Below are positions 3,822-23,887 of a stretch of DNA of 35,382 bases, in pieces. A program made the translations under genes and the position numbers. The notes under the pieces are model-generated. The model was not told where the DNA came from. It ran no database searches and saw only the letters and a program-made list of their open reading frames with translations. Source of the DNA: a candidate division WOR-3 bacterium (lineage in GTDB: Bacteria; Hydrothermota; Tepidihabitantia; Tepidihabitantales; JAOUPE01); assembly GCA_039801565.1 (NCBI GenBank), contig JBDRUX010000011.1, positions 1 to 35,382 of the forward strand. Direction: 5' to 3'. Position 1 is the stretch's first letter. The number at the start of each line of letters is the position of its first letter.

Positions 3822-5588
3822 ATGGCTACTGTCGGTACTATCGTTAAAGTCTCAGGACCTTTGGTTGTTGCCAAAGGGATGACCGGTACAAAGATGTATG
3901 ATGTGGTAAGGGTGAGTGAAAAAAAATTGATTGGCGAGGTGATAAGACTGGAAGGTGATTTGGCATCAATCCAAGTTTACGAAGAAACCGGAGGTATTGG
4001 TCCTGGTGAGCCGGTCTATCCAACTTATGAACCATTGTCGGTAGAATTGGGGCCGGGCCTAATCCAATCCATCTACGACGGTATCCAACGACCCTTAGAT
4101 ATTATTCGAGAAAAGACTGGTGATTTCATTGCTCGGGGTGTTGACATTCCAGCCTTGGACCGAACTCGGCGCTGGCATTTCATACCAATCAAGCAAAAAG
4201 GCGATAAAGTTCTTCCGGGTAGTGTAATCGGCACCGTTCAAGAGACCGAATTGGTTCGTCACAAGATTATGATTCCACCGGGAGTTGAAGGTGAAATTTT
4301 AAAAATCGAAGAGGGTGAATTTACTGTGACCGAGCCGATTGCTATCGTAAAGACCGAAAATGGTGAGAAAGAAATTTTCTTAATGCAACGCTGGCCGGTC
4401 CGTCAACCAAGACCTTATCAAGCGAAATTACCCTTAGCCGAACCGCTACCAACTGGCCAAAGGGTGATTGATACCTTTTTCCCAATCGCCAAAGGAGGCA
4501 CGGCTTGTGTGCCAGGTCCATTTGGTTCGGGTAAGACGGTAATTCAGCACCAGTTTGCCAAGTGGTCGGATGCCGATATTATCATCTTTATTGGCTGTGG
4601 CGAACGGGGTAATGAGATGACCGATGTCTTATTGGAATTTCCCAAACTGACTGACCCCAAGACCGGAAGACCCTTGATGGAACGGACCGTACTGATTGCC
4701 AACACTTCTAATATGCCAGTAGCCGCCCGGGAGGCATCGGTCTATACTGGTATTACGATTGCGGAATATTTTCGGGATATGGGTTATTCCGTGGCTTTGC
4801 AGGCCGATTCCACTTCAAGATGGGCAGAGGCGATGCGCGAAATCTCGGGTCGGTTAGAAGAGATGCCCGGTGAAGAAGGCTATCCTGCTTATCTTTCGGC
4901 ACGGATTGCCGAGTTTTACGAAAGGGCTGGTGCGGTGCGAACTTTAGGTGATGCCAACCAAATTGGCTATTTATCGGTTATCGGTTCAATCTCGCCACCC
5001 GGTGGTGACTTATCTGACCCGGTTGTCCAAGCAACCTTAAGGGTTGTAAAAGTCTTTTGGTCATTAGAGGATAAACTTGCCTTTGCCCGACATTTTCCTG
5101 CCATATCTTGGCTCAACTCTTATTCGCTTTACACCGAAACGGTGAAAGACTATTTTGAGGAAAAGTTAGAGAAAGGATTTGTGGAAAGAGCTAAAGCCGC
5201 GATGATGCTATTGGAAAAAGAGGCGGAATTAGAAGAGATTATTCGGTTGGTTGGCAAAGATAGCCTCTCACCAGCTGACCGGTTAATTCTGGAAGCCGCC
5301 CGCTCGATTCGAGAAGACTTTCTCCACCAGAACGCTTTCCATGAAATTGATACCTATACCTCACTTAAAAAACAATCGGCAATGTTGGAGTTAATACTCT
5401 ACTTTTATGAAAAAGCGAAACAAGCCTTGGAAAAAGGAGCGGACATTACTGAGATTGAAAAATTAGCGGTGCGGGAACGGATTGCCCGAATGAAATATCT
5501 GAAAGAAGAAGAACCGGAAAAGATTTACCAAATCAAAGAGGCGATAGATGCCGAATTGACACAATTATTCGAGAAAACTGTAAGATGA
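3822..5588 (+). CDS. atpA: V-type ATP synthase catalytic subunit A.
   Basis: 588 aa. Walker [14 protein letters not shown]. Typical V/A-type A-subunit length and the non-homologous N-terminal insert region are present. ATGA overlap with subunit B. Confidence 0.95.
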
Positions 5589-6973
5589 TTAAAGATTACC
5601 AGACGGTCACGGAAATTGCTGGACCACTACTGCTCGTTTCCGGTGTAAGTGGGGTAAAGTATCAGGAACTGGTGGAGATTCATCTCCCATCCGGCGAAAT
5701 GCGGCAAGGCCAGGTCTTAGAAGTGGACGAAGACCGGGCATTGATTCAAGTATTTCAAGGCACGGCAGGAATTGATATTCCAAAAAGTAAGATTAGATTT
5801 TTAGGCAAAGGAATTACCATTCCTTTGTCCCAAGACCTTTTAGGGCGAGTCTTAGATGGTTTAGGCCGGCCCCGTGATGGCGGACCACCAATCATTCCTG
5901 ACACCTTTCGCGATATCAACGGTGCGCCTATCAATCCTTTTGCTCGAGAATATCCTAACGAATTTATCCAAACCGGTATTTCGGCAATTGATGGTCTGAA
6001 TACCTTAGTCCGGGGTCAGAAATTACCAATCTTTTCTGGCTCAGGCTTACCCCATAACCGGTTGGCAGCCCAGATTGTGCGGCAAGCAAAGGTTTTGGGC
6101 AAAGAAGAGACCTTTGCGGTAGTCTTTGGAGCAATGGGGATAACCTTTGAAGAAGCCGAATTTTTTCAAAAAGATTTTCGAACCAGTGGTGCCTTAGCAA
6201 GAACCGTACTTTTCCTAAATTTAGCCGACGAACCAGCCATTGAAAGAATTGCGACACCAAGGGCAGCCCTCACCTGTGCTGAATACCTTGCCTTTGAATG
6301 TGATATGCATGTCTTGGTTGTCCTAACCGATATGACTAATTACTGTGAAGCATTAAGGGAAATATCCGCTGCCCGCAAAGAGATTCCGGGTCGGCGCGGT
6401 TATCCTGGCTATCTCTATACTGATTTGGCATCAATTTATGAACGGTGTGGTAGAATTAAAGGCAAAAAAGGTTCAATTACCTTAATGCCAATCTTGACGA
6501 TGCCTGAAGACGATAAAACCCATCCGATTCCAGATTTGACCGGTTATATTACCGAAGGGCAGATTATTTTGTCACGCAGTTTACAACGGAAAAAAGTTTC
6601 TCCGCCAATTGATGTCTTACCTTCGCTATCCCGCCTTAAAGATAAAGGGATTGGCAAAGGTAAGACCCGAGAAGACCATGCCGATTTATTCAACCAATTA
6701 TTTGCTGCTTATGCCCGGGGTAAAGAAGCTGAAGAATTACAGGTAATTTTGGGTGAAGCGGCGTTAACCGAAATGGACCGACTTTATCTAAGGTTTGCCA
6801 ATGAATTTGAACAGCGCTATGTCTCGCAGGGTGAATACGAGGACCGTTCCATTGACCAAACTTTAGATTTAGGCTGGGAACTTTTAAGGATGTTTCCGAG
6901 AACCGAACTGAAGCGGGTAAGGGAAGAATATTTAGAAAAGTATTGGGCAAAATCGGGGGAAAAACAGCAATAA
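5585..6973 (+). CDS. atpB: V-type ATP synthase subunit B (regulatory).
   Basis: 462 aa with alpha/beta ATPase fold motifs and no canonical P-loop, as expected for V-type B. It is coupled to atpA. Confidence 0.95.
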
Positions 6974-12041: not shown

Positions 12042-13247
12042 TTACCTTTGACACACCACTTGATTAAATAAATGCGCTAAACGTTGGGCTTGATTCCTTC
12101 GGCTATACCATCCAATTGGTTGATTGGCAAAAGATTCTTTTTGTTTTAGAATTGTTAGCAAAGTGGATTTAATCGCTTCAGGATTTAAATTTGTCGCAAG
12201 ACCGGCATTGTGGTATTCAATCAGCCGGGTTGCCTCATTACAACTTTCACAAACCGCCAGGATTGGCTTGCCCGCGCCGAAATATTCATATAACTTTATA
12301 CCGGCGGATTGGTTTGGTTTCGTCAAATATAGTAAAATATCCACACTTTTCATCAAGTTAATTACAGTTTGATGTGATAATATCCCCAAATAACGGACCG
12401 TTGGACTTAAAGTCTTCAAACGGTTTTGGCAATCAATTGAGGCTCGGCCGGCAATGAGAACTTGTAAATCTTTAATATCACCCACTGCTTGTAAAAAGGC
12501 AAAGAGTGCGCCTTCATTCTCCCATAAAGTTCCGGCATAAAGTATCTGCAATTTCTTATCCGGCGGTTTTGATTCCCTTAAGCCTGATTCAGTATCTTCT
12601 TTTACCTCGAATTCTTCTGGGTCATAGCCATTTTCAATTATTGTTGCTTGTTTCTCAAGTTGACGAGCAGTCCCTTGATTAACTGCCACTACGGTATCTG
12701 AATTCTTAAGGATATAGCGGCGCAAGATTTGTACTAAAGAACGAAAATGAAGCGGTGGCGGTGTAAAACCGGCCGGATAAGGGTCACGAAAATCACTGAC
12801 CAAAGGTATCCCACTCTCTCGTTTTAAAAAGACCCCGAGCAGTAAAGCACTGTAAGGTGGCCCAGTGGCAAAGATTAGCCGTGGCTTTTCTTGGCTGATT
12901 ACCTTTCTTCCTAATGACAAGGCAAATGGCACCCAAAGAACCTTGGCGTCAGGGAAAAGCAAATAATTTACGAATAAAGGCCCGGTGCCACGAACCTTAA
13001 CTGGTTTATCCTTGCGCCAGAGGTAAAGAATCCGCGCTGGGTCAAGACTTTCACTACGATAGATTTTTATTCCCTCTAAATCTTTAAGTAGACTTTGGTC
13101 GTAAAGAAAATAACTGATTGGCTTTACGGTTAAGAAAACCGGTTGCCAGCCAAATTCCGGAAGGTATTTAGCTAATTTTGTTACTCGCATTACCCCACTC
13201 ATTCCAACCGGTGGTGAATAATAAGTGACAAATAAGACCTTATTCAC
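12042..13247 (-). CDS. GT-B fold glycosyltransferase, family 4-like. Its GTG start lies 1 nt after the helicase stop.
   Basis: N-terminus VLFVTYYSPPVGMSGVMRVTKLAKYLPEFGWQPVFLT (Glyco_trans_4-like). C-terminal EX7E-type motif KLYEYFGAGKPILAV. 401 aa. Confidence 0.75.
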   Translation of the reverse strand: MNKVLFVTYYSPPVGMSGVMRVTKLAKYLPEFGWQPVFLTVKPISYFLYDQSLLKDLEGIKIYRSESLDPARILYLWRKDKPVKVRGTGPLFVNYLLFPDAKVLWVPFALSLGRKVISQEKPRLIFATGPPYSALLLGVFLKRESGIPLVSDFRDPYPAGFTPPPLHFRSLVQILRRYILKNSDTVVAVNQGTARQLEKQATIIENGYDPEEFEVKEDTESGLRESKPPDKKLQILYAGTLWENEGALFAFLQAVGDIKDLQVLIAGRASIDCQNRLKTLSPTVRYLGILSHQTVINLMKSVDILLYLTKPNQSAGIKLYEYFGAGKPILAVCESCNEATRLIEYHNAGLATNLNPEAIKSTLLTILKQKESFANQPIGWYSRRNQAQRLAHLFNQVVCQR

Positions 13248-13248
13248 T

Positions 13249-15300
13249 TTAGAGCTTTCGAATATAGTCGGCCATTGCTTTTAGACATTCTTCGGCGGGG
13301 AGAAAGACCAATTTGAGTTGCTTTAAATAACTCAACAAACCATGAATATCTAATGTCAAATAATGGTCTTCAACTTGTAGGTCTTCGGGTAAGGTTCGAA
13401 AGAAAGCCCCGGAACCTAAGTTGTCTTCCAATTGGAAAATATTTTCTCGAATTACTGCTCGAATCGCTTCTTCATCCGGCAGTGGCAAGGGCAAGGACTC
13501 ATTTTTAGGGAATTGCCATATTTTCGCCGGTAGGGAAAAAATTTTCCCCTCAATGTCTAATACCGGGATTCCGGTTCTATTATAGGCTTGACTAAGGATA
13601 AAGCCATAAAGGCTACCAAGAAAATGGACTATATAAATATTAGGCGTGACCTGGAAATAAGGAAATTCTTCAGCCGGCAATTCTGGAAAAAATTTTTGCT
13701 TGATAACCGAAGCCAATTGGTAATAGTAACCGCCCGTGCCAGTTCCTTCAAATAATTTAGTCGTTCCATCTACTTCACCAATCCTTTGTGCTAAGACTTT
13801 TCGCTCTTTTTCTTTCTTTTCGACCAACTCCCAAGTTCGACCACCCAGAATGAATCTTTTGGCTAAATAGTAGATTTTACCAATATGAGTATTACTACTA
13901 ATGTCGTAAACATCATAGCTACCAAAACTCTTTTCTTGGATATTAGAATGAATTTTGCCGTAAGTGATTTTATTCTCTAATTTCGGAGCGAGAAAGTAAA
14001 TACTACTCCTGGGGGCAGTGATGAAACTTTCCTTTAATAAATTCTCAAATATCTGGCGAATATTTTCTTCTTGGTCATAGATTGGTTTGATTATTCTTAC
14101 TATCGAATCATAAGTTGTGCCGATGCGCCGGCGTTGGAAAAGATAAGAAAAGATTTGCTGGGGAATAACCGAAAGGCAGGGATTGTAGCGTTTTTCGTAA
14201 AGAAAACCTTTTTTTGCACAGTCGAAATAGAGTTCAAAAAGAAATTTTTCCCAGGGGTTTTCATAAACACCGATGGCAAAAAGGTAATTCTTGCGGCGCC
14301 GATTGCCTCGACCAATCCGTTGTAAGAGCGAACTGACATTAAAAGGTGGCCGAAAGAGTACCACGCCGTCAATATCACCAATATCAATTCCCAATTCCAA
14401 AGTGGAAGTAGCACAAAGAATGCCGAATTTCTCTTGATTCATTAGGACTTCAATTCGTTCCCGCTCTTTTTTGACTAAGCTGGCATGATGAACCCAGACC
14501 CGATTTTTAAATGGTGCGCGGTCAAAAACTTTACCATAAGATTCGGCATAACTGCGGGCATTGAAGAAACAAAGAATCTTATGCAACTGGTGCTCTTGAA
14601 ATAGTTGAAAAAGGATAGAAACCAAATCTTTGGAGTTCGGAATTAAAACCGTTTCAATATCCCGTTCGATTTGGACTAACACCACCTTAGGATTGGGAAA
14701 ATAGCGTTCGCCAATTGTTAAATCGTCAATTGTTGCTGACAACGCGCAGTATTGAAGATTGGATTTAATTCGCCTTAGCCGATTCAAGAGAATTCGCAAT
14801 TGGTCACCCCGGGGTGTGTTATCTAAAAGATGTAACTCATCCAAAATTACCGCGGAAAGTTGGGCAAATATCTTAGGAAACCGACAAAGCATCGAGTCGA
14901 ATGATTCCGGAGTTGTTAAAAGTAAGAACGGTGGCCGTTTCTCATCCAATTTTGGTCGGTCGCCGGTTTTCCGGGCCAAATCGAGTTCCAAATTGAGTTT
15001 GAGATAACCGATTGGCGAAGCCAACCGACGATAGAGGTCATTAACCAAGGCCCGGGTTGGTGAAACATAAAGGATTGAGAATCGGTTCGCCTTAAAATCG
15101 GGTTTACCGAGGATTCTTTCTACAACCGGTGCAACAACCGCTTCAGTTTTACCAGTGGCCGCCGGTGCAATGACAACAATATTCTCACCGGATAGAATCT
15201 TCGGGATAGTGGCGACTTGCACTGGCGTCAACCGGCCGAAATGGCTAAAAAATGGAATCCAAGTTCGCTTTAATGACTGTTTAATCTCAGCTTCGGTCAT
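13249..15300 (-). CDS. SF2 DExH-box helicase, Lhr/BrxHI-like, with a ~300-aa uncharacterised C-terminal region.
   Basis: Motif I APAATGKTEAV; Ia YVSPTRAL; Ib LLTTPESF (TPES is typical of Lhr-like helicases); II VILDELHLL (DExH); III ALSATI; VI LLQRIGRGNRR. Last gene of the ATPase-ATPase-helicase operon. Confidence 0.85.
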   Translation of the reverse strand: MTEAEIKQSLKRTWIPFFSHFGRLTPVQVATIPKILSGENIVVIAPAATGKTEAVVAPVVERILGKPDFKANRFSILYVSPTRALVNDLYRRLASPIGYLKLNLELDLARKTGDRPKLDEKRPPFLLLTTPESFDSMLCRFPKIFAQLSAVILDELHLLDNTPRGDQLRILLNRLRRIKSNLQYCALSATIDDLTIGERYFPNPKVVLVQIERDIETVLIPNSKDLVSILFQLFQEHQLHKILCFFNARSYAESYGKVFDRAPFKNRVWVHHASLVKKERERIEVLMNQEKFGILCATSTLELGIDIGDIDGVVLFRPPFNVSSLLQRIGRGNRRRKNYLFAIGVYENPWEKFLFELYFDCAKKGFLYEKRYNPCLSVIPQQIFSYLFQRRRIGTTYDSIVRIIKPIYDQEENIRQIFENLLKESFITAPRSSIYFLAPKLENKITYGKIHSNIQEKSFGSYDVYDISSNTHIGKIYYLAKRFILGGRTWELVEKKEKERKVLAQRIGEVDGTTKLFEGTGTGGYYYQLASVIKQKFFPELPAEEFPYFQVTPNIYIVHFLGSLYGFILSQAYNRTGIPVLDIEGKIFSLPAKIWQFPKNESLPLPLPDEEAIRAVIRENIFQLEDNLGSGAFFRTLPEDLQVEDHYLTLDIHGLLSYLKQLKLVFLPAEECLKAMADYIRKL

Positions 15301-15329
15301 TTTAAAAATGGTTCAAATTGTTCAAGCGT
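15301..15329 (-). promoter_or_regulatory. Intergenic junction (ATPase-2 stop to helicase start) carrying three tandem CTTGAAC/TTGAACC repeats at 8-9 nt spacing.
   Basis: Coding-strand sequence aaaaCTTGAACgCTTGAACaatTTGAACCatttttaaaATG. The same word arrangement recurs at the 16635-16684 junction. Confidence 0.35.
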
Positions 15330-16634
15330 TCAAGTTTTGATTATACCGGACTGTTTAAGACGAAGCAAATCTAATGCTTCGACACAGTACTTAATAAAAA
15401 GTCGAATTCCTTCATCTTTTCGCTTTAAAGCGTTAGCGAAAAGTTGTTTCCTATCTAAATCCGATAAGGTAAAATTCGGATAGGCTCGCGAATAGACCAT
15501 CGTCAATTTTGTGAATGCCTCAGTTAAAGCCCTCTCACTTAACGGGTTCAGCGTGATTTTATTTTTAATGAAATTGGTCAATTTAATATAAGTATAATCA
15601 TAAGGCATCGGAGTTGTGGCAATCACTAAAAGGATGTAGGAATCCTTATAAATATAAGGAGTGGGCCGAACTTGATTGTGAATCAAACGCGTATCAATTT
15701 TCTTTAAAGCCGGGTCATTGAGTGCAGTTCGGATTAAGCCTTCAAGGAAGTTCATCCCCCGGGTAAAGGCGATAATATCCCAGAGATGAGTGACGGTCTC
15801 GGCTTCATCAATTAGAATTACTAACCCATGTAATTTTAATTTCGCCGCAATGTAACTTAAACCGCTGATATTATAGCAATAGAAATCAGCCGCAGTTGAA
15901 AAGTCATAGAGGGCAGGAATTTTGTAACCACCCAATATCCGATAGGGGCTACGGTATTCAACCGCATATTCTTTGGTGCTTTCACCTTCAATCCATTGCC
16001 AGAAGACTTCGGTCACCAGACTGGATGCATCTAATCGTTTTAAGCGCGCTAAAAGTGGGGTATAAAAGCAATGGTCATTGATTGACAAGTCAAGCGCCCG
16101 ATATAATAAATCGCGAAAAGAATTTTCCTGCTCGTTGTTAATGAATCGAAGATTATGGACCAACTCGCGCCAGACCCGTTTTGGGCGATTGGGAGCAACT
16201 TCTCTGGGGTCAAACTCACAACGGCTGGTTACCATATTCATCTTTAAAGCCTGGTGGTGAATGTATTCCAATAGATGGGTCTTACCAGAACCATATTCCC
16301 CTTCAATTAAAAAGACATCTCCCTTACCCCGAGTTAAATTCTCTAAGCCGGTAAGAATCTTTTCGATTTCGCTATCCCGGCCAAAGGTAAATTCGTCAAC
16401 ATCCTGATGAGGCACAATTCCCATTCGAAAGGCTTCAATCATCCGACGGGCACTAACTTCCGAAATCGGTTGTTGCTCGCGTGCCACCGGCAGAACCCGA
16501 CTGGTTGGTATCCATAGCTTTAAACCGCTTTGAAATTTGACCAGAACTTCGGTGCCTCGCCAGCGATAATCTAATATCTCACCCTCACCAAAGACCGGAT
16601 GAGAAACATAAGAAGTATTTAACGCTTTGTCCAT
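15330..16634 (-). CDS. P-loop NTPase, BrxD/DUF2791-like (second of two paralogs).
   Basis: N-terminal RRMIEAFRMGIVP...FTFGRDSEIEKI..L....GKGDVFLIEGEYGSGKTHLL (Walker A). Walker B LVILIDEAETV. Its architecture and motif spacing parallel the upstream paralog. Confidence 0.7.
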   Translation of the reverse strand: MDKALNTSYVSHPVFGEGEILDYRWRGTEVLVKFQSGLKLWIPTSRVLPVAREQQPISEVSARRMIEAFRMGIVPHQDVDEFTFGRDSEIEKILTGLENLTRGKGDVFLIEGEYGSGKTHLLEYIHHQALKMNMVTSRCEFDPREVAPNRPKRVWRELVHNLRFINNEQENSFRDLLYRALDLSINDHCFYTPLLARLKRLDASSLVTEVFWQWIEGESTKEYAVEYRSPYRILGGYKIPALYDFSTAADFYCYNISGLSYIAAKLKLHGLVILIDEAETVTHLWDIIAFTRGMNFLEGLIRTALNDPALKKIDTRLIHNQVRPTPYIYKDSYILLVIATTPMPYDYTYIKLTNFIKNKITLNPLSERALTEAFTKLTMVYSRAYPNFTLSDLDRKQLFANALKRKDEGIRLFIKYCVEALDLLRLKQSGIIKT

Positions 16635-16684
16635 CAGTTTTTCTTAAAGGCTAACTTGGTTCAAAATATTCAAATAGTTCAAAA
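16635..16684 (-). promoter_or_regulatory. Intergenic junction (ATPase-1 stop to ATPase-2 start) carrying three tandem TTTGAAC/T repeats.
   Basis: Coding-strand sequence aatTTTGAACtatTTGAATattTTGAACCaagttagcctttaagaaaaactgATG. No canonical SD precedes the ATG. Confidence 0.35.
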
Positions 16685-17959
16685 TTAAAATTCTTCTTTT
16701 TCTACTTCGGCTTTGGCTGCTTCGGTTAATTTCTGTGTTGTCACTTTTAAAATATTTTCCGCATCTTTCTTTTCCAGTGCTTTATTGGGATTGGCGCGGA
16801 TACGATGGAAGGCTTCAATTGCACCGACAACAAATAGCCGCCGATAACTTACATCATAAGCAAAGGCTTGTAATACCAGTTCGGATAGATTCTTAATCGT
16901 CTTGTTCAAGATATTTCGGTTAAACTCAAAATTGTAAGCGGTTTCAAAAAGGCTGGCCAGTTTCAAGCCCAAGGCATGTAAAAATTGGGACGGCTCAATA
17001 CCTAATTCTTCTAAGTTAATTTTGACCCCAACCGGATTGGTTTCGGAGAATGCGCTGCGGAGTCTTTGTTTCAAAGCCTCGTAGACACCGCCACTTCCTT
17101 CTAATAATAGATTTTCATCCGGAATTGCATAAAAAAACATCACCCCGGGTAATCGGCTATTGCCACATTCATCAATAATTTGCCGCAAGTTGTCTAAGGC
17201 GCGTCTTTTATCCCGAGAAGATGAGATACTCATTCCCCTTTCCGCTTCATCAAAAAGTAAAATCAAACCCGAATAGCCAATTAAATGAATCCATTGGGCT
17301 AAGGAACGAATCATCCGAAAAGCCGTTGCTTTATCAATCCGTTCGGAGATTCGGTAGCGGGCTCGGATGTCTCGTCCAATCTCTTCACCTTTCAACCACT
17401 GGACAACTGCATCAAAGCCTTCATCGTCTTCAGCAATGATACAACTGAAGGCACCTTTAACCGCATTTAAAAAACTGGTACTCTCAGTACCTTTTATCGT
17501 CTTTAAGTATTCCTGCAGGGCATCAATCTGGTTAACCTTGGCTTTACAGTTCTCATACCAACGGTGGAGTAAACAATCAATTCCTTTTTCCCAAGATTTC
17601 ATTAATTCTTCTTCTTTAACTGGTGGAGTGAGGTTGATTGCAATCTGTTTATAGACCAATTCTAATTTATCAAATGGGCATTCGGTGGGGTTAAGACTGA
17701 CATAAGCCACAACAAAATTATGTTTGAACGCTAAATTCCGCACCGTATAAAGAAAATGGGTCTTCCCACCACCATAATTACCAGTGATGAGTTTAAAAGA
17801 AGAAAGATTGTATTTGAGAATTCCTTTTAGATATTCCTCTTCGATGACGCAAGAATAGCGTTCCAAACCGATAGTGAATGTCTCGATGCCAAATTCCGGT
17901 GGTGTGCCGGTGCCGCCCAATTTATTAATAATTGCTCGGGCGAGATTGGTGTCAATCAT
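16685..17959 (-). CDS. P-loop NTPase, BrxD/DUF2791-like (first of two paralogs).
   Basis: N-terminal ARAIINKLGGTGTPPEFGIETFTIGLERY...LSSFKLITGNYGGGKTHFL (Walker A). Walker B GLILLFDEAERG. ATGA overlap with the upstream 281-aa gene. Confidence 0.7.
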   Translation of the reverse strand: MIDTNLARAIINKLGGTGTPPEFGIETFTIGLERYSCVIEEEYLKGILKYNLSSFKLITGNYGGGKTHFLYTVRNLAFKHNFVVAYVSLNPTECPFDKLELVYKQIAINLTPPVKEEELMKSWEKGIDCLLHRWYENCKAKVNQIDALQEYLKTIKGTESTSFLNAVKGAFSCIIAEDDEGFDAVVQWLKGEEIGRDIRARYRISERIDKATAFRMIRSLAQWIHLIGYSGLILLFDEAERGMSISSSRDKRRALDNLRQIIDECGNSRLPGVMFFYAIPDENLLLEGSGGVYEALKQRLRSAFSETNPVGVKINLEELGIEPSQFLHALGLKLASLFETAYNFEFNRNILNKTIKNLSELVLQAFAYDVSYRRLFVVGAIEAFHRIRANPNKALEKKDAENILKVTTQKLTEAAKAEVEKEEF

Positions 17960-18801
17960 ATTGGTTCAAAAACAAGATAAGAATAAAAAGTACCATCGCC
18001 CTGCTCGTTATCTGGTACCCAAATTGATTTTGTCTTGTCGGTTGTAGCATCAAAAGTAGCCACGCCTAATCGAAGTCGGTGCTTACCAATGACAAAATTT
18101 TCCCTTTGCTTTAAGTTATACAAGTCGTAACTGAATTGAATCCTTGAATACTCGCGAAATTTATCTTTGGCCGGGTCGGCACGGAAAGAAGCGGGTTGGG
18201 ATAAAAGAACTAATTCCGAAAGCAAATCAATCAATAAGACCTTTTCGCCAGCAGGGATATTATTCAATTTGGTATAGCGTTCGTACGCCCGTATCAGGTT
18301 TTTGAGAAAATCCTTGGGCGGAGTTAAGTGTCTTTTGATTCGCTCGTTAAAACTATGAATGGTCTCGTAGATAGTTGGAACCGAAAGCGGAATTTTTGAT
18401 TTAATGGTTTGGATTTCCGGGCCCCAAAATAGTGTAGCAAATCCTAATTCAAAATCGAGTTTTAGAGTATAGAATCCAACGCGTAAAACCGGTAGCTGTC
18501 CTTTTAAGACAATGCCATCTTTTGCTAATAAATCTCTCAATTCACTACCAAATTTATAACGAAATTCATCCTTAATCGTTTTTAGGGCTTCGGCTTCAGC
18601 AGTAAGCCAGGTGGAAAGATTGGTCTTAATCTCGACACAAGGATAATCGGCTAATATTTTCTTTATCTCGTTAAGTCTTTTTTCTATTAAGGAAAATTCC
18701 TTACCAGCCGACTCTTTCGTTTTTAGGTAGGACTCAATTCTTTTCGCTAAAACTTGCGATTTTTTAGAGACTTCTTTCAAGCGCTGACCCCAATTTTCCA
18801 T
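17956..18801 (-). CDS. Hypothetical protein, first gene of the ATPase-ATPase-helicase operon. Likely translated from a leaderless mRNA.
   Basis: 281-aa ORF with no recognisable motif. The N-terminal ~100 aa are Lys/Glu-rich and predicted helical. The ATG lies 8 nt downstream of a consensus TATAAT. Confidence 0.6.
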   Translation of the reverse strand: MENWGQRLKEVSKKSQVLAKRIESYLKTKESAGKEFSLIEKRLNEIKKILADYPCVEIKTNLSTWLTAEAEALKTIKDEFRYKFGSELRDLLAKDGIVLKGQLPVLRVGFYTLKLDFELGFATLFWGPEIQTIKSKIPLSVPTIYETIHSFNERIKRHLTPPKDFLKNLIRAYERYTKLNNIPAGEKVLLIDLLSELVLLSQPASFRADPAKDKFREYSRIQFSYDLYNLKQRENFVIGKHRLRLGVATFDATTDKTKSIWVPDNEQGDGTFYSYLVFEPI

Positions 18802-18809
18802 AGAGAGTA

Positions 18810-18837
18810 ATTATAATTTTTTCTAATGCTTTGTCAA
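18810..18837 (-). promoter_or_regulatory. Consensus sigma70 promoter (TTGACA-N16-TATAAT) placed so that transcription starts at or within a few nt of the ATG at 18801 (leaderless).
   Basis: Minus-strand sequence ttATTGACAaagcattagaaaaaatTATAATtactctctATGG. -35 at 18832-18837, -10 at 18810-18815, and 8 nt separate the -10 from the ATG. Confidence 0.5.
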
Positions 18838-19360
18838 TAAAAAGCGCAACCATTACCATTTACCGCTTAAAACCTGTGCTAACTTTTTAATATTTAGTGA
18901 ACTGATAAAGTTTAAAATATTTTTAAAATGACTTTAATTTTATTTAAGATTTTTAGCTTTAATTTTCTATTATTTTGATAAGTCATTAATTTTCCAAGTC
19001 TTATTACCTCTTGACCCATCATTAGGGGCTAGCCCCCGGCTACCCTAAGGCTAACCCATAAGCGGTATCGGGGGCAGTATCAGAGATAGAGGCTGGAATC
19101 GCTTAATAGTTAGTCTTTTTGTTAGGCTTAGGGAAAGTCTTAATGGTTGATTTCTTATTTGCTTCTCAGATAGTTTAAGTTTCAGCCTTCTGGGCAAAAA
19201 TTACCGTTAGTTGGCAATCCACTTGGATTTCACCAGCTTTGCTGGCTATCGGGTTGGACACCAGAGAAGTTGGGATGGACAGTTAGGACACAAGTTTAAT
19301 TATTACCTGTCTTTATCCCCAAACTTCTGGGCTCTTAGTTTAAAGGCTAATCAATTTCGC

Positions 19361-20593
19361 CTAATTTGTTTTAATTAGCTTTTTGGTGATAGTAAGTTCT
19401 TTGGTTTCTAATTTAAGCAAATAGACACCAGCTCGAACTGGGTTAAAGGCATCGTCAGTTCCTGTCCATTCGACAATCCTAAGTCCGGATTCTTGTTGCC
19501 CATTGACTAAAACTTTAATTCGCTGACCCGAACGATTATAAATACTCAATTTCACTGTCCCTGGTTTACCAACATAGTAGCCGATTTTCACACTATTTTT
19601 GAATGGATTAGGTGATATTACACTAAAACCAACTGGTTTAAGAACCAATTCACCCTTGAGACCAACGAAACCGCAAGAAAACCAGGCGTCGTTACAATAA
19701 TTACCGTTATTACCGCCCAGTATCCAAATTTTATCGTCATAGGCAACTCCGCTCAGGCCAAACCTTGTTTCCCAACCAGCCGAATCGGTGGCTAAAAACC
19801 AGTTCATACCGTCATAAGAGTACCAGACATCATTAAGATTGACGCCATTCGATTTTCCACCCAGCACCCAGATTTTGTTATCAAAGACTAAGGCGGAAAA
19901 ATTCTGTCTTGCCGGCCATTCTGCCGAATTAGTGGCACAAGTCCAGTTTATACCATCGCTCGAATACCAGACATCGTTTAGGTCACCGGACGGACCGTTG
20001 CCGCCGAGGACCCAAATTTTATTATCAAATACGACCGAGGCGTGTAAATAACGCTTTTGCCAGGCAGCCGAGGAGCAAGCCCCGGTCCAGGAAAAACCAT
20101 CGGTGGAGAACCAGACATCGTTTTTATAACCGAAATATTCTACCCCACCCATTATCCAGATTTTGTTATTAAATGAAACGGCACTATGGCCAAAGCGCAT
20201 TGACCAATCAGCAGCAATGATTACCCTTGTCCAGTTTATCCCATCAGCAGAATTCCAGACATCATTTTTATAGTGGCCAAAGCCTTCGTGTCCGCCCATT
20301 AACCAAATCTGGTTGTTATGGACGACTGTTGTGTGAAAAGCCCTTCTTGACCAACCTGGTGCATTAGTGACACAATTCCAGTTTACGCCGTCGGTCGAAT
20401 TCCAGACATCGTTAAAATAATTAGAAAAATCCCAGCCCCCCAATATCCATAGTTTATTATCGAAGACGACCGCGGTGTGATTGGCGCGTCTTACCCAAGC
20501 ACAAGAATCAGTGACCTCAATCCATTCCATTTGCCCAGTGAGTAATTTGAACAATATAAAGAGAATAAGGATAGCAACTGCCTTTTTCATCAT
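19361..20593 (-). CDS. Secreted Kelch-repeat beta-propeller protein with a T9SS C-terminal sorting domain.
   Basis: Signal peptide MMKKAVAILILFILF. Five near-identical repeats DVW(N/Y/F)S.DG.NW......W..R....A.V.F(N/D)NKIW(I/V)(L/M)GG. C-terminus SPNPFKNSVKIGYYV...VKLSIYNRSGQRIKVL...GVYLLKLETK is a T9SS CTD. Confidence 0.8.
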   Translation of the reverse strand: MMKKAVAILILFILFKLLTGQMEWIEVTDSCAWVRRANHTAVVFDNKLWILGGWDFSNYFNDVWNSTDGVNWNCVTNAPGWSRRAFHTTVVHNNQIWLMGGHEGFGHYKNDVWNSADGINWTRVIIAADWSMRFGHSAVSFNNKIWIMGGVEYFGYKNDVWFSTDGFSWTGACSSAAWQKRYLHASVVFDNKIWVLGGNGPSGDLNDVWYSSDGINWTCATNSAEWPARQNFSALVFDNKIWVLGGKSNGVNLNDVWYSYDGMNWFLATDSAGWETRFGLSGVAYDDKIWILGGNNGNYCNDAWFSCGFVGLKGELVLKPVGFSVISPNPFKNSVKIGYYVGKPGTVKLSIYNRSGQRIKVLVNGQQESGLRIVEWTGTDDAFNPVRAGVYLLKLETKELTITKKLIKTN

Positions 20594-20625
20594 TCCCCCT
20601 TTTTTACCCCGTTTGACATTATATT

Positions 20626-20654
20626 ATTATAGCAATTGCGAATTCATTTGTCAA
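20626..20654 (-). promoter_or_regulatory. Consensus sigma70 promoter (TTGACA-N17-TATAAT) for the Kelch/T9SS gene.
   Basis: Minus-strand sequence cTTGACAaatgaattcgcaattgcTATAATaatataatg..aaaaagggggaATG. The SD-like aagggggA lies before the ATG. Confidence 0.5.
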
Positions 20655-20708
20655 GAGATAATCCAGGCATTACCGAGCCCTCGCCGAAATATAGACAAGT
20701 GCTTTAAA

Positions 20709-22352
20709 ATGGATATAATATCGAAAATGGTAAAATTAAGAATTGCCAAAAATATCAAAACAATGCTGAGAAAAATATTTTTGATATTTATTTTTATTGA
20801 GTTAAGTGAAGGAAATTCTCCACCGACTACACCTATTATTTTTGGTCCAAAGGTGGCCAAGATGGGCGAAGTTTGTAATTTTAAAATTTTTGCTACTGAC
20901 CCAGATGGCGATAGTATTAAATATTTTTATAAAGAAAATATAATAGGATTATGGAAAGAGACGCCTTTTTATGCGAGTGGAGAGACGGTTTATATTTCCC
21001 ATGTTTTAATGGGTAGCGGAGTCCGCAAAATTTCCTTTTATACTCAGGATAAAAAAGGAGCATCTTCTAAAGAAATTATTTATGAGATTACGGGGAAAAT
21101 ACCTGAGAGATTAAAGGGAATAAAGGAATTTACCGGTATCTTTTTCCCCTACGAAAAAGGATGGAAGATAATAGATTTTTGGACGCTTGATACCAGTGGC
21201 CGGATGATAGTAAGGTTGCAGAAATCACCAAATGGAAGAACACTCGATGCCTTTTGGCTTTGCCAATTAAAAGAAGCTATATTAAAAAAGATACAATTTC
21301 TTAGTATTGATGATAGATATTTGGTAAACGAGGAAGGAATGTGTGGGCATGATAAAGGTATAAGTTTCAATGATAGTATATTTTGTTATACGGCTTATGA
21401 ATGGAGAAGAAGTGAATGGACATATATTTTTGATTTAAAAAATTGGGAAATAATTGGTGAAATAGGTAGAAAATATACTCCAAGTAATGTTTTTGTTCCG
21501 CCGCCTCATTTTTCGGTAATTTCGGAAAAAGAAGGAGAAAATGAATTCGCGGGAACATCTCTTGGAAAATTTTTAATAATTCCTTATTTTCCAATTAAAG
21601 ATTTAGGAGAAAGATGGAGAGATATGACTTTAGGAGAATGTTGTTTAGAGATAGACCCAAAGAAAAATCTGGGATTTCTTATTAAAGGTTCAGCAGAGAA
21701 TATACCACCTTTTAAGGTTTTAGTGATTTCCGATAGTGAATTACTTATTGAGATATTTAAAACTGACTCGTTTATAAAAGCGAATGATTTAAAGAGAAGC
21801 GAATATTTAGAAGTATGGCAAAGGACTAATGAGGGAGATTGCAATTATAATTTTTATCGTTGGGGCATAAGACTTGCTGATGGAGAGATATTTATTTTAT
21901 CAGACCCAATTTTTTTTAAAACCTTTGAATACGGAGATGGTGTTGAAGCAGTGGCTAAAAAATTTAATTGGATTTTATTAGAGGACATTGAAGGAACCGG
22001 GGTATTTAAAGCTCCTGATAGTGTGCCGAAATTGCCAGAGGTTTGGGTAAGCGATAAGGAAGAGAGGAAAAAGATGCATAATTCAGTTATGGTGAAGATA
22101 AAATTGCCTTATAAAATAGTTTTTGATGCTTCTTCTCTTTCTATTGCTTATTATTTTCCGGACAAAAAAAGTTCGCTCTTTTCTACAAGTGAGATTAAAT
22201 TTGATGAAAAATATCGTATGTTTTCGTTAAGTATGGTGACTCCTTCTCAATATTATACGGGTGTTTTATTAGGTGATAAATTAGTGAAGCAAAAGATTCC
22301 TCAGAAATTTGACCCCGATAAACCAATATTTGATTATCGAAGACCCTATTGA
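20709..22352 (+). CDS. Hypothetical secreted protein encoded by a distinctly AT-rich gene. The start is uncertain: the ORF track's 20481 start runs into the convergent Kelch gene, and MDIISK at 20709 or MLRKIFLIFIF are more plausible.
   Basis: Long clean ORF whose base composition is visibly AT-richer than the flanking genes. A hydrophobic signal-like segment LRKIFLIFIFIELSEG is present. No T9SS CTD and no recognisable catalytic motif. Confidence 0.55.
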   Translation: MDIISKMVKLRIAKNIKTMLRKIFLIFIFIELSEGNSPPTTPIIFGPKVAKMGEVCNFKIFATDPDGDSIKYFYKENIIGLWKETPFYASGETVYISHVLMGSGVRKISFYTQDKKGASSKEIIYEITGKIPERLKGIKEFTGIFFPYEKGWKIIDFWTLDTSGRMIVRLQKSPNGRTLDAFWLCQLKEAILKKIQFLSIDDRYLVNEEGMCGHDKGISFNDSIFCYTAYEWRRSEWTYIFDLKNWEIIGEIGRKYTPSNVFVPPPHFSVISEKEGENEFAGTSLGKFLIIPYFPIKDLGERWRDMTLGECCLEIDPKKNLGFLIKGSAENIPPFKVLVISDSELLIEIFKTDSFIKANDLKRSEYLEVWQRTNEGDCNYNFYRWGIRLADGEIFILSDPIFFKTFEYGDGVEAVAKKFNWILLEDIEGTGVFKAPDSVPKLPEVWVSDKEERKKMHNSVMVKIKLPYKIVFDASSLSIAYYFPDKKSSLFSTSEIKFDEKYRMFSLSMVTPSQYYTGVLLGDKLVKQKIPQKFDPDKPIFDYRRPY

Positions 22353-22486: not shown

Positions 22487-23887
22487 ATGAAACCAATTAA
22501 TTCTCTAACTATTTGTCTTCTTGCTATTTCGGTCACCTTAGCCCAGTGGACAACGATTAGTGTTGATACCGTAACATCCTTGCCCACGGCTAAGACTATG
22601 ACGATGCAGGCATTGGCGATTGATAATAACCAGACACTTCATGCGGTTTGGACCGAACGGATTTCACCCGGTATTAATCGGATTTATTATTCTTATAAGG
22701 TAATCGGTTCGACTTGGAGTTTGCCGGAATTAGTAGCAGATTCCACTAATAGTGACGCAGTATTAGGAGTCGAGGCTAATTCTGGAGTAGTCCATATCGC
22801 TTATACTGTCACAATTAGCACTTATCCTGAACTCTTCTACGCTACCAATCGCACTGGTAATTGGGAAAGAACTCGTCTGACTAACAATGATGTCTACGAC
22901 TATGCGCCCACCATTGTGGTCAAAGGTAGTTCCGCCCATATCGCCTGGATTACGGTTGATTCTTTGAGGCAATATCGAATTGCTTACGGGATTTATTCTT
23001 CGGGCAGTTGGTACAAAGAAATTCTTTATGGCAGTCAGCTTGGCGATTTTGGTTTAGGTGCCGCACCTTATCTTGCTCTCGAACCAACTGGAATTGCTCA
23101 TATCAGTTATCGTGGTGGCAACTACGGTAATTACCATATCCATCATGCTGAAAATCCGCTTGGTGATACAACTTGGCTCTATGAGGTTCTTTATACGGTG
23201 AATGCCAATGACTTCAGTTCGGCGCTGGCAGCAAAGCACAATGGTGAACTTTTCTTAGTTTGTAGTGGCAACGATGGTTGGGGGTTTCCCTTCCGAACTT
23301 GCTACTTACATCGTCCACCAAACTCATCAACTTGGGAACCTTATCAATTGATGACCGGCGATGCCAGTGCCACTTTACGCGGTTTTGCCCTGGACTCTAA
23401 TTTTGTTCATATCAGTTGGGAACGGGTTAGTGGCAATATTCTAACCGAAGAAATCTATCACTGCTCCAATTTTTCCGGTCGTTGGTTCAATTCCGGGATT
23501 AGAACCGATGGTCAAACCAGTTATGGCGCATTAGTGATTGATAATAATCATTGTGGACACTGCTTAGTAGTTTCGGGTGCTAATATTGATTCGCAGTCAG
23601 TCTATTGTCTTAACAGTGCCCCACTCACTAGTTTGAATGAAAGTCGAAATGATAACTGTGGCAATTTTTTAAGCCGAAGCTTAAGAATTTTACGCCCACC
23701 GGTGCGACTGAAAATAAATGACGCTACTACTTCTCCAGTCTCGATTTATAACAGTAATGGGCAAAAACTCACCCGAATTCCAGTTCAAAATGATGGCACA
23801 ATAGTCTGGAATGAACCCAATATTGCCACTGGCATCTATTTTTGCCAATATCGAGGGAAGACTTTGCCATTTATTCTATTACGCTAA
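22487..23887 (+). CDS. Secreted beta-propeller-like repeat protein with a T9SS C-terminal sorting domain.
   Basis: Signal peptide MKPINSLTICLLAISVTLAQ. Repeated (V/A)HI(A/S)(W/Y) strand motifs (LHAVWTE, VHIAYTV, AHIAWITV, AHISYRG, VHISWERV). C-terminus VSIYNSNGQKLTRIPVQNDGTIVWNEPNIATGIYFCQYRGKTLPFILLR matches a T9SS CTD. Confidence 0.75.
   Translation: MKPINSLTICLLAISVTLAQWTTISVDTVTSLPTAKTMTMQALAIDNNQTLHAVWTERISPGINRIYYSYKVIGSTWSLPELVADSTNSDAVLGVEANSGVVHIAYTVTISTYPELFYATNRTGNWERTRLTNNDVYDYAPTIVVKGSSAHIAWITVDSLRQYRIAYGIYSSGSWYKEILYGSQLGDFGLGAAPYLALEPTGIAHISYRGGNYGNYHIHHAENPLGDTTWLYEVLYTVNANDFSSALAAKHNGELFLVCSGNDGWGFPFRTCYLHRPPNSSTWEPYQLMTGDASATLRGFALDSNFVHISWERVSGNILTEEIYHCSNFSGRWFNSGIRTDGQTSYGALVIDNNHCGHCLVVSGANIDSQSVYCLNSAPLTSLNESRNDNCGNFLSRSLRILRPPVRLKINDATTSPVSIYNSNGQKLTRIPVQNDGTIVWNEPNIATGIYFCQYRGKTLPFILLR

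Follow-up and report, generated by a model that had tools for sequence, protein, structure and literature searches.

A conserved four-gene cassette joining two BrxD-family ATPases, an Lhr-like helicase and a signature protein in candidate division WOR-3 and distant bacterial and archaeal lineages

Contig JBDRUX010000011.1 of a candidate division WOR-3 bacterium (assembly GCA_039801565.1) was analysed over 35,382 nucleotides (nt), the whole of which is referred to here as the window. Its minus strand carries five closely packed open reading frames (ORFs), g1 to g5, the first four of which constitute a conserved cassette of a signature protein, two paralogous ATPases and a helicase. g1 (17956-18801) encodes the signature protein, which has 281 amino acids (aa) and no known domain. 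g2 (16685-17959) encodes the first AAA+ ATPase of the BrxD/SngB family (PF10923), with 424 aa, and g3 (15330-16634) a second, divergent BrxD-family ATPase of 434 aa, which falls in the ORC/Cdc6 clade and bears an added N-terminal barrel. g4 (13249-15300) encodes a superfamily 2 (SF2) DExH helicase of 683 aa, of the Lhr/Ski2-like BrxHI/SngC type, and is followed by g5 (12042-13247), a gene with a GTG start for a 401-aa glycosyltransferase with GT4 Pfam domains. g1 and g2 share a 4-nt ATGA overlap, and the later gaps measure 50, 29 and 1 nt (g2-g3, g3-g4 and g4-g5). A putative sigma-70-type promoter on the same strand, TTGACA-16-TATAAT (18810-18837), whose function is read from its sequence, is the one site among 30 promoter-like sites between 11800 and 19400 to match the consensus at 12 of 12 positions. 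Since 8 nt separate its -10 hexamer from the start codon (ATG) of g1, the predicted mRNA is leaderless or nearly so. A first-pass annotation, made from the letters of the window alone, had described this tight packing, a single consensus promoter and a leaderless first gene; its spacings are exact to the nucleotide and its promoter is the sole full match. Base composition is even throughout the region. A protein from a WOR-3 metagenome-assembled genome (P0001) shows 100% identity to g1.

g2 and g3 are paralogous AAA+ ATPases of the ORC/Cdc6 clade with intact Walker motifs, and their earlier description as BrxD/DUF2791-like paralogues is supported. PF10923 (BrxC_BrxD) matches g2 over its full length (6e-49) and g3 over residues 57-177 only (1e-27), with AAA_16 as a further match for g3, and the two proteins align in BLASTP with 26% identity (E 3e-9). 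Among the PADLOC models, g2 matches BrxD (9e-41) and SngB (4e-23), and g3 matches SngB (1.5e-15); the equivalog level of NCBIfam BREX_BrxD (NF033438, cutoff 350 bits) is missed by both, with 139 bits for g2 and 66.7 bits for g3. Walker A reads GNYGGGKTHFL in g2 and GEYGSGKTHLL in g3, Walker B reads LILLFDEAE and LVILIDEAE, and for g2 these motifs are conserved in 52 sequences. The N-terminal motif that had been proposed as common to the pair is present in g3 (IEAFRMGIVP...FTFGR), but g2 fits it only loosely (IINKLGGTGTPP...FTIGL). g2 is the most conserved gene of the cassette, with 47-88% identity between loci. A PDB sequence search with both ATPases returned nothing meaningful, and their AAA+ fold, with Walker A and B intact, is closest to Orc1/Cdc6. 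The resemblance has its bounds: archaeal Orc1/Cdc6 paralogues, which form a heterodimer on origin DNA (PDB 2qby), are only 12-16% identical to the cassette ATPases, and their C-terminal winged-helix DNA-binding domain was not identified in g2 or g3. A further difference from Orc1/Cdc6 and from AAA+ helicase loaders is that the cassette pairs its ATPases with an SF2 enzyme of monomeric type instead of a ring helicase.

All g3 orthologues, archaeal ones included, start with a module of ~45 aa, VxHxx[FYW]GxGxV...FxxGLxxW[LI]P, corresponding in the window to residues ~1-52 of g3 (16479-16634, minus strand). Canonical BrxD and SngB profiles start only at residue 57 of g3, so this module is an addition to the protein, without a counterpart in canonical BrxD/SngB or in the plasmid subtype described below; it is new here, going beyond the first-pass annotation. 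Searched against the PDB, the module profile finds UvrD C-terminal domains (7egs_B 7.8e-4, 6yi2_A 8.6e-4, 7egt_B 0.015, 4c2t_A 0.02), including the one crystallised with UvrB (7egt_B), and the Tudor domains of JMJD2A rank after them. The Pfam families PcrA_UvrD_tudor and CarD_TRCF_RID give sub-threshold matches in 1 and 3 of 20 members, respectively, and the predicted model of g3 places five short beta-strands at residues 9-50. The module has the HxxFGxGxV motif in common with the C-terminal Tudor domain of UvrD/PcrA and is predicted to form a five-strand barrel. The position differs: that domain closes a superfamily 1 helicase, and the barrel of g3 opens an AAA+ ATPase. It also differs from both the UvrD/PcrA Tudor and the Mfd/CarD RID domains in staying below the Pfam thresholds and in being present in archaeal copies. 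The identification of the module as a Tudor-like barrel of the UvrD C-terminal kind, drawn from profile and model, is suggestive but not secure.

The helicase g4 displays the motifs TTPES, DELH, SAT and QRIGRGNRR together with the Pfam domains DEAD and Helicase_C. Its best PADLOC matches are BrxHI (3.5e-67, spanning residues 21-505 only) and SngC (3.9e-58), and its nearest PDB entries are those of M. smegmatis Lhr (5v9x 8.5e-25, 7lhl 3.6e-24), followed by ASCC3, Slh1, Hel308 and Brr2, which agrees with the prior reading of a DExH helicase of Lhr/BrxHI type carrying TPES. Lhr is a repair-associated 3'-5' translocase. The SF2 DExH core of g4 is most similar to Lhr, but at the level of sequence the protein shows neither the winged-helix, domain 4 and C-terminal architecture of Lhr nor an equivalog-level match, reaching 187 bits against a cutoff of 850 for TIGR04121 and 160 against 849 for PRK13767. 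Motifs I-VI are conserved in 40 sequences and the C-terminal region (340-683) is poorly conserved; the helicases of archaeal cassettes are ~150 aa shorter. Because Walker and SF2 motifs are conserved across 40-52 orthologues, g2, g3 and g4 look catalytically competent.

The signature protein g1 always occupies the first position in the cassette. It has no match in Pfam, PADLOC, NCBIfam or PHROGs (the last of which also lacks a match for g2 and g3), and g1 with 39 homologues yields no consistent Pfam match at E<=1. A search of PDB sequences gave nothing meaningful, and the fold has no solved structural relative. The predicted model is confident (predicted local distance difference test score 90) and runs from a three-helix bundle at the N-terminus through a five-strand beta-meander and then a helical region to a three-strand sheet at the C-terminus. 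Searched against 1.84 billion representatives, the g1 profile retrieves at least 891 clusters, defined at 50% identity, at E<=1e-3, and 294 at E<=1e-30, with members nearly all of 270-290 aa. The absence of a TerB signature, remarked on at first pass, is upheld by the lack of any TerB-family Pfam match at E<=1 for g1 and the 39 homologues and of any PADLOC match to SngA. As a positive control, genuine SngA matches the SngA model at 4e-103 and TerB_N at 1.6e-67, but the g1 profile gives this Shango protein -1.9 bits; a TerB relationship of g1 is thereby rejected. g1 is proposed to be a non-enzymatic adaptor or sensor. One clear family member of 271 aa, P0130, which matches the family profile at E 6e-68, is found by itself on a Logan contig (SRR24791474, L071:10001-10816). 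Its gene is flanked by those for BamA (Omp85) and TsaD, type III-A csm genes are ~5 kb away, and no BrxD-like ATPase is encoded up to a distance of 10 kb, so the g1 family is broader than the cassette.

Conservation of the gene order was examined in GTDB, where each species was represented by one genome, with a strict peptide pattern for g1 that was derived from alignment A1, the broader alignment A2 being too divergent to give patterns. The scan returned 61 loci, a lower bound because one strict peptide pattern set them, mostly in WOR-3 and also in Caldisericota, Gemmatimonadota, Poribacteria and Syntrophaceae. g1, g2 and g3 are collinear in every one of these loci with enough sequence, and g4 comes next in most; the question raised at first pass, whether the arrangement is conserved elsewhere, is thus answered in the affirmative. 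Altogether, the same four genes are found in more than 100 loci spanning two domains of life. In Marsarchaeota-type contigs the cassette lies immediately beside two type I-A CRISPR-Cas modules, in Promethearchaeota (Asgard) contigs a HEPN gene is nearby, and in a further bacterial lineage the surroundings are murein and RNA-processing genes. The arrangement had been flagged as possibly uncatalogued, and no name for it was found in PADLOC v2, Pfam, NCBIfam, PHROGs or the literature searched, where nothing relevant appeared beyond papers on BREX (bacteriophage exclusion) diversity and on Shango; a description elsewhere is possible.

Several individual loci show departures of their own. At least nine loci end after g3 (L009, L011, L012, L016, L019, L020, L021, L034 and L064), the first seven belonging to one WOR-3-like sub-lineage and the last two to Caldisericota. 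In the three that were annotated, L009, L019 and L064, the genes downstream of g3 are unrelated housekeeping genes, namely those for a cNMP-binding protein and OmpA, for aldehyde dehydrogenase and lysyl-tRNA synthetase, and for threonyl-tRNA synthetase. In such loci, either the helicase gene lies at another site or g1, g2 and g3 function in its absence. Two Caldisericota contigs from the same bin (MAG_4091, JBPOJC01; L029 and L034) each carry g1-g2(-g3), each ~45% identical to the query, which may mean either that the genome has two copies or that the bin mixes strains. The Asgard g1 homologue (L069:1935-3035) has 366 aa and is extended at its N-terminus, where a Rho_N/SAP-like domain scores 25.4 bits (cutoff 24.9). 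The gene after the Asgard cassette (L069:7365-7922) matches UFC1, a typically eukaryotic enzyme that conjugates ubiquitin-fold modifiers.

A related subtype resides on plasmids. Searches of plasmids with g2 gave distant BrxD-type matches at 22-29% identity, two of them with the same architecture. On the conjugative plasmid3 of Aulosira laxa NIES-50 (AP018310.1, L074:1-11557), a canonical PglZ-BrxD-BrxHI set is directly followed by genes for a hypothetical protein of 279 aa, for two ATPases and for a helicase, which places two paralogous ATPase-helicase modules in tandem. On pDESTI.01 of Desulfomonile tiedjei, the same four genes adjoin AbiEi/AbiEii. The 279-aa plasmid proteins score 44 and 42 bits over ~200 positions against the g1 family profile, to be set against the negative score of SngA, and by this measure they are distant g1 homologues. 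Their second ATPase lacks the Tudor module. In pairwise comparisons, g2 reaches ~100 bits against the first plasmid ATPase and 50-99 bits against BrxD and SngB; g3 is weakly best against the second plasmid ATPase (56-76 bits), with lower scores against BREX and Shango proteins; and g4 reaches 186-207 bits against the plasmid-cassette helicases and ~137 bits against BrxHI and SngC. Since these scores group the components of the window and the plasmids together, the four-gene system forms a clade of its own. Judged from the same comparisons, the duplication of the ATPase is older than the split into two subtypes, and the cassette is sister both to the BrxD-BrxHI pair found in BREX types 2 and 6 and to the SngB-SngC pair of Shango, while belonging to neither system.

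Shango is an experimentally validated anti-phage defence system (10.1101/2022.11.11.516204; 10.1101/2022.05.11.491447), and BrxD-BrxHI is a tightly linked pair for which a helicase-loader role has been proposed (PMC12839542). With Shango the cassette shares an upstream partner, a PF10923-family ATPase and an Lhr/Ski2-like DEAD/DExH helicase without nuclease or methyltransferase, in the operon order of a real Shango locus (L076). The SngB model matches the two ATPases and the SngC model the helicase, both more weakly than the BrxD and BrxHI models do. The differences are that SngA consists of TerB_N, TerB and TerB_C and is unrelated to g1, that the cassette ATPase is duplicated with a Tudor-like barrel on the second copy, and that the components cluster apart from SngB and SngC. 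From BREX types 2 and 6 the cassette differs in having no PglZ, PglX, BrxC or PglW, and from their ATPase-helicase pair in having two ATPases instead of one, as well as g1. The lack of a BREX core, claimed from the letters alone, has been substantiated: PglZ was found neither in the window nor among recurrent neighbours (~70 loci) nor in precomputed Pfam lists, and PglX/BrxX and BrxC/PglY were found neither in the window nor among recurrent neighbours, the Aulosira plasmid being the only place where BREX genes occur. Since the longest ORF of the window has 732 aa, there is also no room in it for PglZ, PglX or BrxC.

These comparisons bear on the idea that the locus is a decaying fragment, left behind by BREX 2/6 or Shango after loss of their core genes. 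The best PADLOC matches, to BrxD and BrxHI and then to SngB and SngC, would fit such an origin, as would the NCBI annotation of homologues as 'BREX system ATP-binding domain-containing protein'. A remnant, however, is hard to reconcile with the same four genes recurring in more than 100 loci of two domains of life with catalytic motifs intact, with the lack of core genes in the window and among the recurrent neighbours, with components that form their own clade behind a first gene unrelated to SngA, or with the Aulosira plasmid, where the cassette is a separate unit that coexists with a canonical BrxD-BrxHI. The conservation data effectively refute this explanation, which is considered highly improbable.

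The glycosyltransferase gene g5, or GT4, is probably co-transcribed with the cassette at this locus. It had been thought that it may belong to the module, and a five-gene system in which the ATPases and helicase are coupled to glycosylation of the cell envelope or of nucleic acids would explain the 1-nt gap after g4 and the presence of GT4 after the helicase in 28 loci of the first set and 45 of a metagenome scan. The 28 occurrences, however, are out of ~70 loci and all fall in a subset of WOR-3, and GT4 was not found in any non-WOR-3, archaeal or plasmid copy, nor in several WOR-3 sub-lineages. The spacing between g4 and GT4 ranges from an overlap to ~560 nt across loci. In its WOR-3 subset, GT4 travels with convergent GT2 and epimerase genes, companions typical of a polysaccharide locus, and with the gene for ribosomal protein L28. 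The metagenome scan was anchored on GT4, and some of its loci duplicate GTDB loci, making the counts not independent. Of the orthologous-level GT4 loci whose contigs reach far enough upstream, 45 of 54 have the cassette there. It is absent in the other nine, seven of which make up a single divergent clade with the GT4-(GT2)-epimerase order intact, so that GT4 persists without the cassette. The spot between g4 and GT4 can also accept insertions, as seen in L135:124-10170 (Ga0129301_1000260), where the two are separated by four genes (134, 194, 734 and 856 aa) that match nothing in the other loci. On locus counts, spacing and persistence without the cassette, membership of GT4 in the system is rejected, and a five-gene module is deemed very improbable. 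GT4 is a lineage-specific syntenic neighbour, outside the conserved four-gene cassette.

As had been reported at first pass, the operon lies between cargo genes of the type IX secretion system (T9SS): both genes flanking the cassette encode T9SS sorting domains, one in a 552-aa protein above the Por_Secre_tail cutoff and the other in a 410-aa Kelch protein just below it (25.6 bits against 27). The wider flanks contain, by Pfam, T9SS cargo, V/A-type ATPase subunits and YfiH-like and Band 7 proteins, without an integrase or a recognisable defence gene. No tRNA genes were found in the window, and a search of its whole length against Rfam gave no match. A 520-nt non-coding spacer (18838-19360) separates the Kelch cargo gene from the promoter of the cassette and is strongly AT-rich beside the promoter and GC-rich at ~19010-19090. 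Two plus-strand ORFs, 20481-22352 (~550-623 aa) and 22487-23887 (466 aa), have no Pfam match at E<=1e-4. A V/A-type ATP synthase, an ATPase of archaeal type, is represented in this WOR-3 bacterium by neighbouring genes for its A and B subunits (3822-6973, plus strand).

For the family as a whole, the best-supported function is anti-mobile-element surveillance, that is, defence, a reading to which about as much belief as doubt is attached. It is supported by the homology of the components to parts of BREX and Shango and by defence-type contexts in Aulosira (PglZ-BrxD-BrxHI), Desulfomonile (AbiEi/AbiEii), Marsarchaeota (CRISPR-Cas) and Asgard archaea (HEPN). The Rho_N/SAP-like domain of the Asgard g1, a link to nucleic acids, and the conserved catalytic motifs of all three NTPases are counted on the same side. 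Defence-gene neighbours occur on the plasmids, in Marsarchaeota, in Asgard archaea and in L011 and L016, and are lacking in more than 50 WOR-3 loci, a tally that has no statistical background. In L016 a divergent 763-aa protein is encoded directly upstream of g1 (L016:3013-5304), matching the SspH C-terminal region at 3.6e-58 and mad8 at 1.4e-41, and a cluster mate holds the same position in L011; from these matches, it may be a defence-type ATPase neighbour in its sub-lineage. The first-pass description as immunity-type is not supported for this particular locus: component homology and the plasmid and CRISPR-adjacent copies favour defence, and the housekeeping surroundings and the co-divergence within WOR-3 do not. 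In WOR-3 the cassette is fixed, vertically inherited and core-gene-like, and a role in immunity there is plausible.

Several observations weigh against the defence reading, most of them from WOR-3. The pairwise identities of g1-g3 track those of the syntenic GT4, GT2 and epimerase, with Spearman correlations of 0.67-0.91 (0.73-0.85 for g2) that are inflated by shared phylogeny and descriptive only; the corresponding comparison with an aminoacyl-tRNA synthetase (cluster c6) is unreliable, two paralogues being mixed in it. g2 and g3 show 68-75% identity in WOR-3 as against 54-62% for syntenic neighbours, and the cassette was retained in the great majority of the GT4 loci described above. Its WOR-3 contexts are several, each stable within a sub-lineage and each made up of housekeeping genes, with flanks that include tRNA synthetases, fructose bisphosphatase (FBPase), L28, RNase PH and BamA/TsaD. 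Credible PADLOC defence models appear in only a handful of 109 non-redundant flanking ORFs (SspH/mad8, mad2, mad3 and TIR), the remaining matches being generic, and no nuclease, toxin or methyltransferase accompanies the cassette in the loci examined. At the sensitivity of tblastn, no relatives of g1 were found on phages, IMG/VR contigs or plasmids. The helicase is missing after g3 in at least nine loci and one g1 homologue stands alone, the Tudor assignment derives from an E-value of ~8e-4 and a predicted model, and the hetero-oligomer of g2 and g3 and its loader role are analogies.

Several of these observations lend weight to a housekeeping function in genome maintenance, according to which the cassette would be a core DNA- or RNA-transaction machine of WOR-3 and allied lineages. 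The ORC/Cdc6-like pair would recognise a structure, which could be an R-loop, a stalled fork or a conflict between transcription and replication. The Lhr-like helicase would resolve this structure, and through the barrel the complex would be coupled to RNA polymerase or UvrB. Vertical co-divergence with neighbours that are less conserved than the cassette, stable, sub-lineage-specific chromosomal positions among housekeeping genes, the absence of an accompanying effector, toxin or modification gene, and the retention beside GT4 all agree with it. So do the likeness between the barrel and the C-terminal domain of UvrD, also in the form that was crystallised with UvrB, the position of Lhr as the solved structure nearest to the helicase, and the failure to find the cassette in phage, viral or, for this subtype, plasmid collections. 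All characterised relatives of the ATPase and the helicase, however, belong to defence systems, and the cassette is distributed patchily among bacterial and archaeal phyla that are far apart. Plasmids carry a related subtype next to BREX and AbiE genes, one archaeal copy adjoins CRISPR-Cas, and one WOR-3-like clade keeps the GT4-GT2-epimerase synteny with the cassette absent at the site. A housekeeping role is accordingly seen as a serious contender that nevertheless falls short of an even chance. In a further, rather unlikely scenario, the cassette might be a domesticated defence module, turned into a vertically inherited, transcription-coupled genome-maintenance pathway in WOR-3 and possibly some archaea, and sister to the BREX-accessory and Shango modules. 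Under such domestication, and with the same tentative standing, the ORC/Cdc6-like pair might dock on the transcription or repair machinery through the barrel and, with g1, load the Lhr-like helicase.

For the defence function preferred for the family, a working mechanism can be sketched by analogy. g2 and g3 would form an ATP-switched hetero-oligomeric platform on DNA, as the paralogous archaeal Orc1/Cdc6 proteins do on origin DNA, and this platform may recognise a nucleic-acid target and recruit or load the g4 helicase. g1 would act as a non-catalytic sensor or adaptor, occupying the place that the TerB protein SngA has in Shango. The barrel of g3 may tether the complex to a partner, and RNA polymerase or UvrB would be possible candidates on the model of UvrD/PcrA.

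Few parts of BREX and Shango are as poorly understood as the BrxD-BrxHI and SngB-SngC pairs, and the cassette provides a third, independent setting for such an ATPase-helicase pair. Its mechanism is made testable by the duplication of the ATPase, by the signature protein as a partner and, in one of the subtypes, by a Tudor-like docking domain. With g1 comes a protein family that numbers at least 891 clusters at 50% identity and is unannotated in every library searched. The cassette is found in WOR-3, Caldisericota, Gemmatimonadota, Marsarchaeota, Asgard archaea and cyanobacterial and Desulfomonile plasmids, and it offers a cross-domain example of one module that has a mobile, defence-associated look in some lineages and a core-like look in another, a contrast that bears on the exchange of roles between immune modules and genome-maintenance machines.

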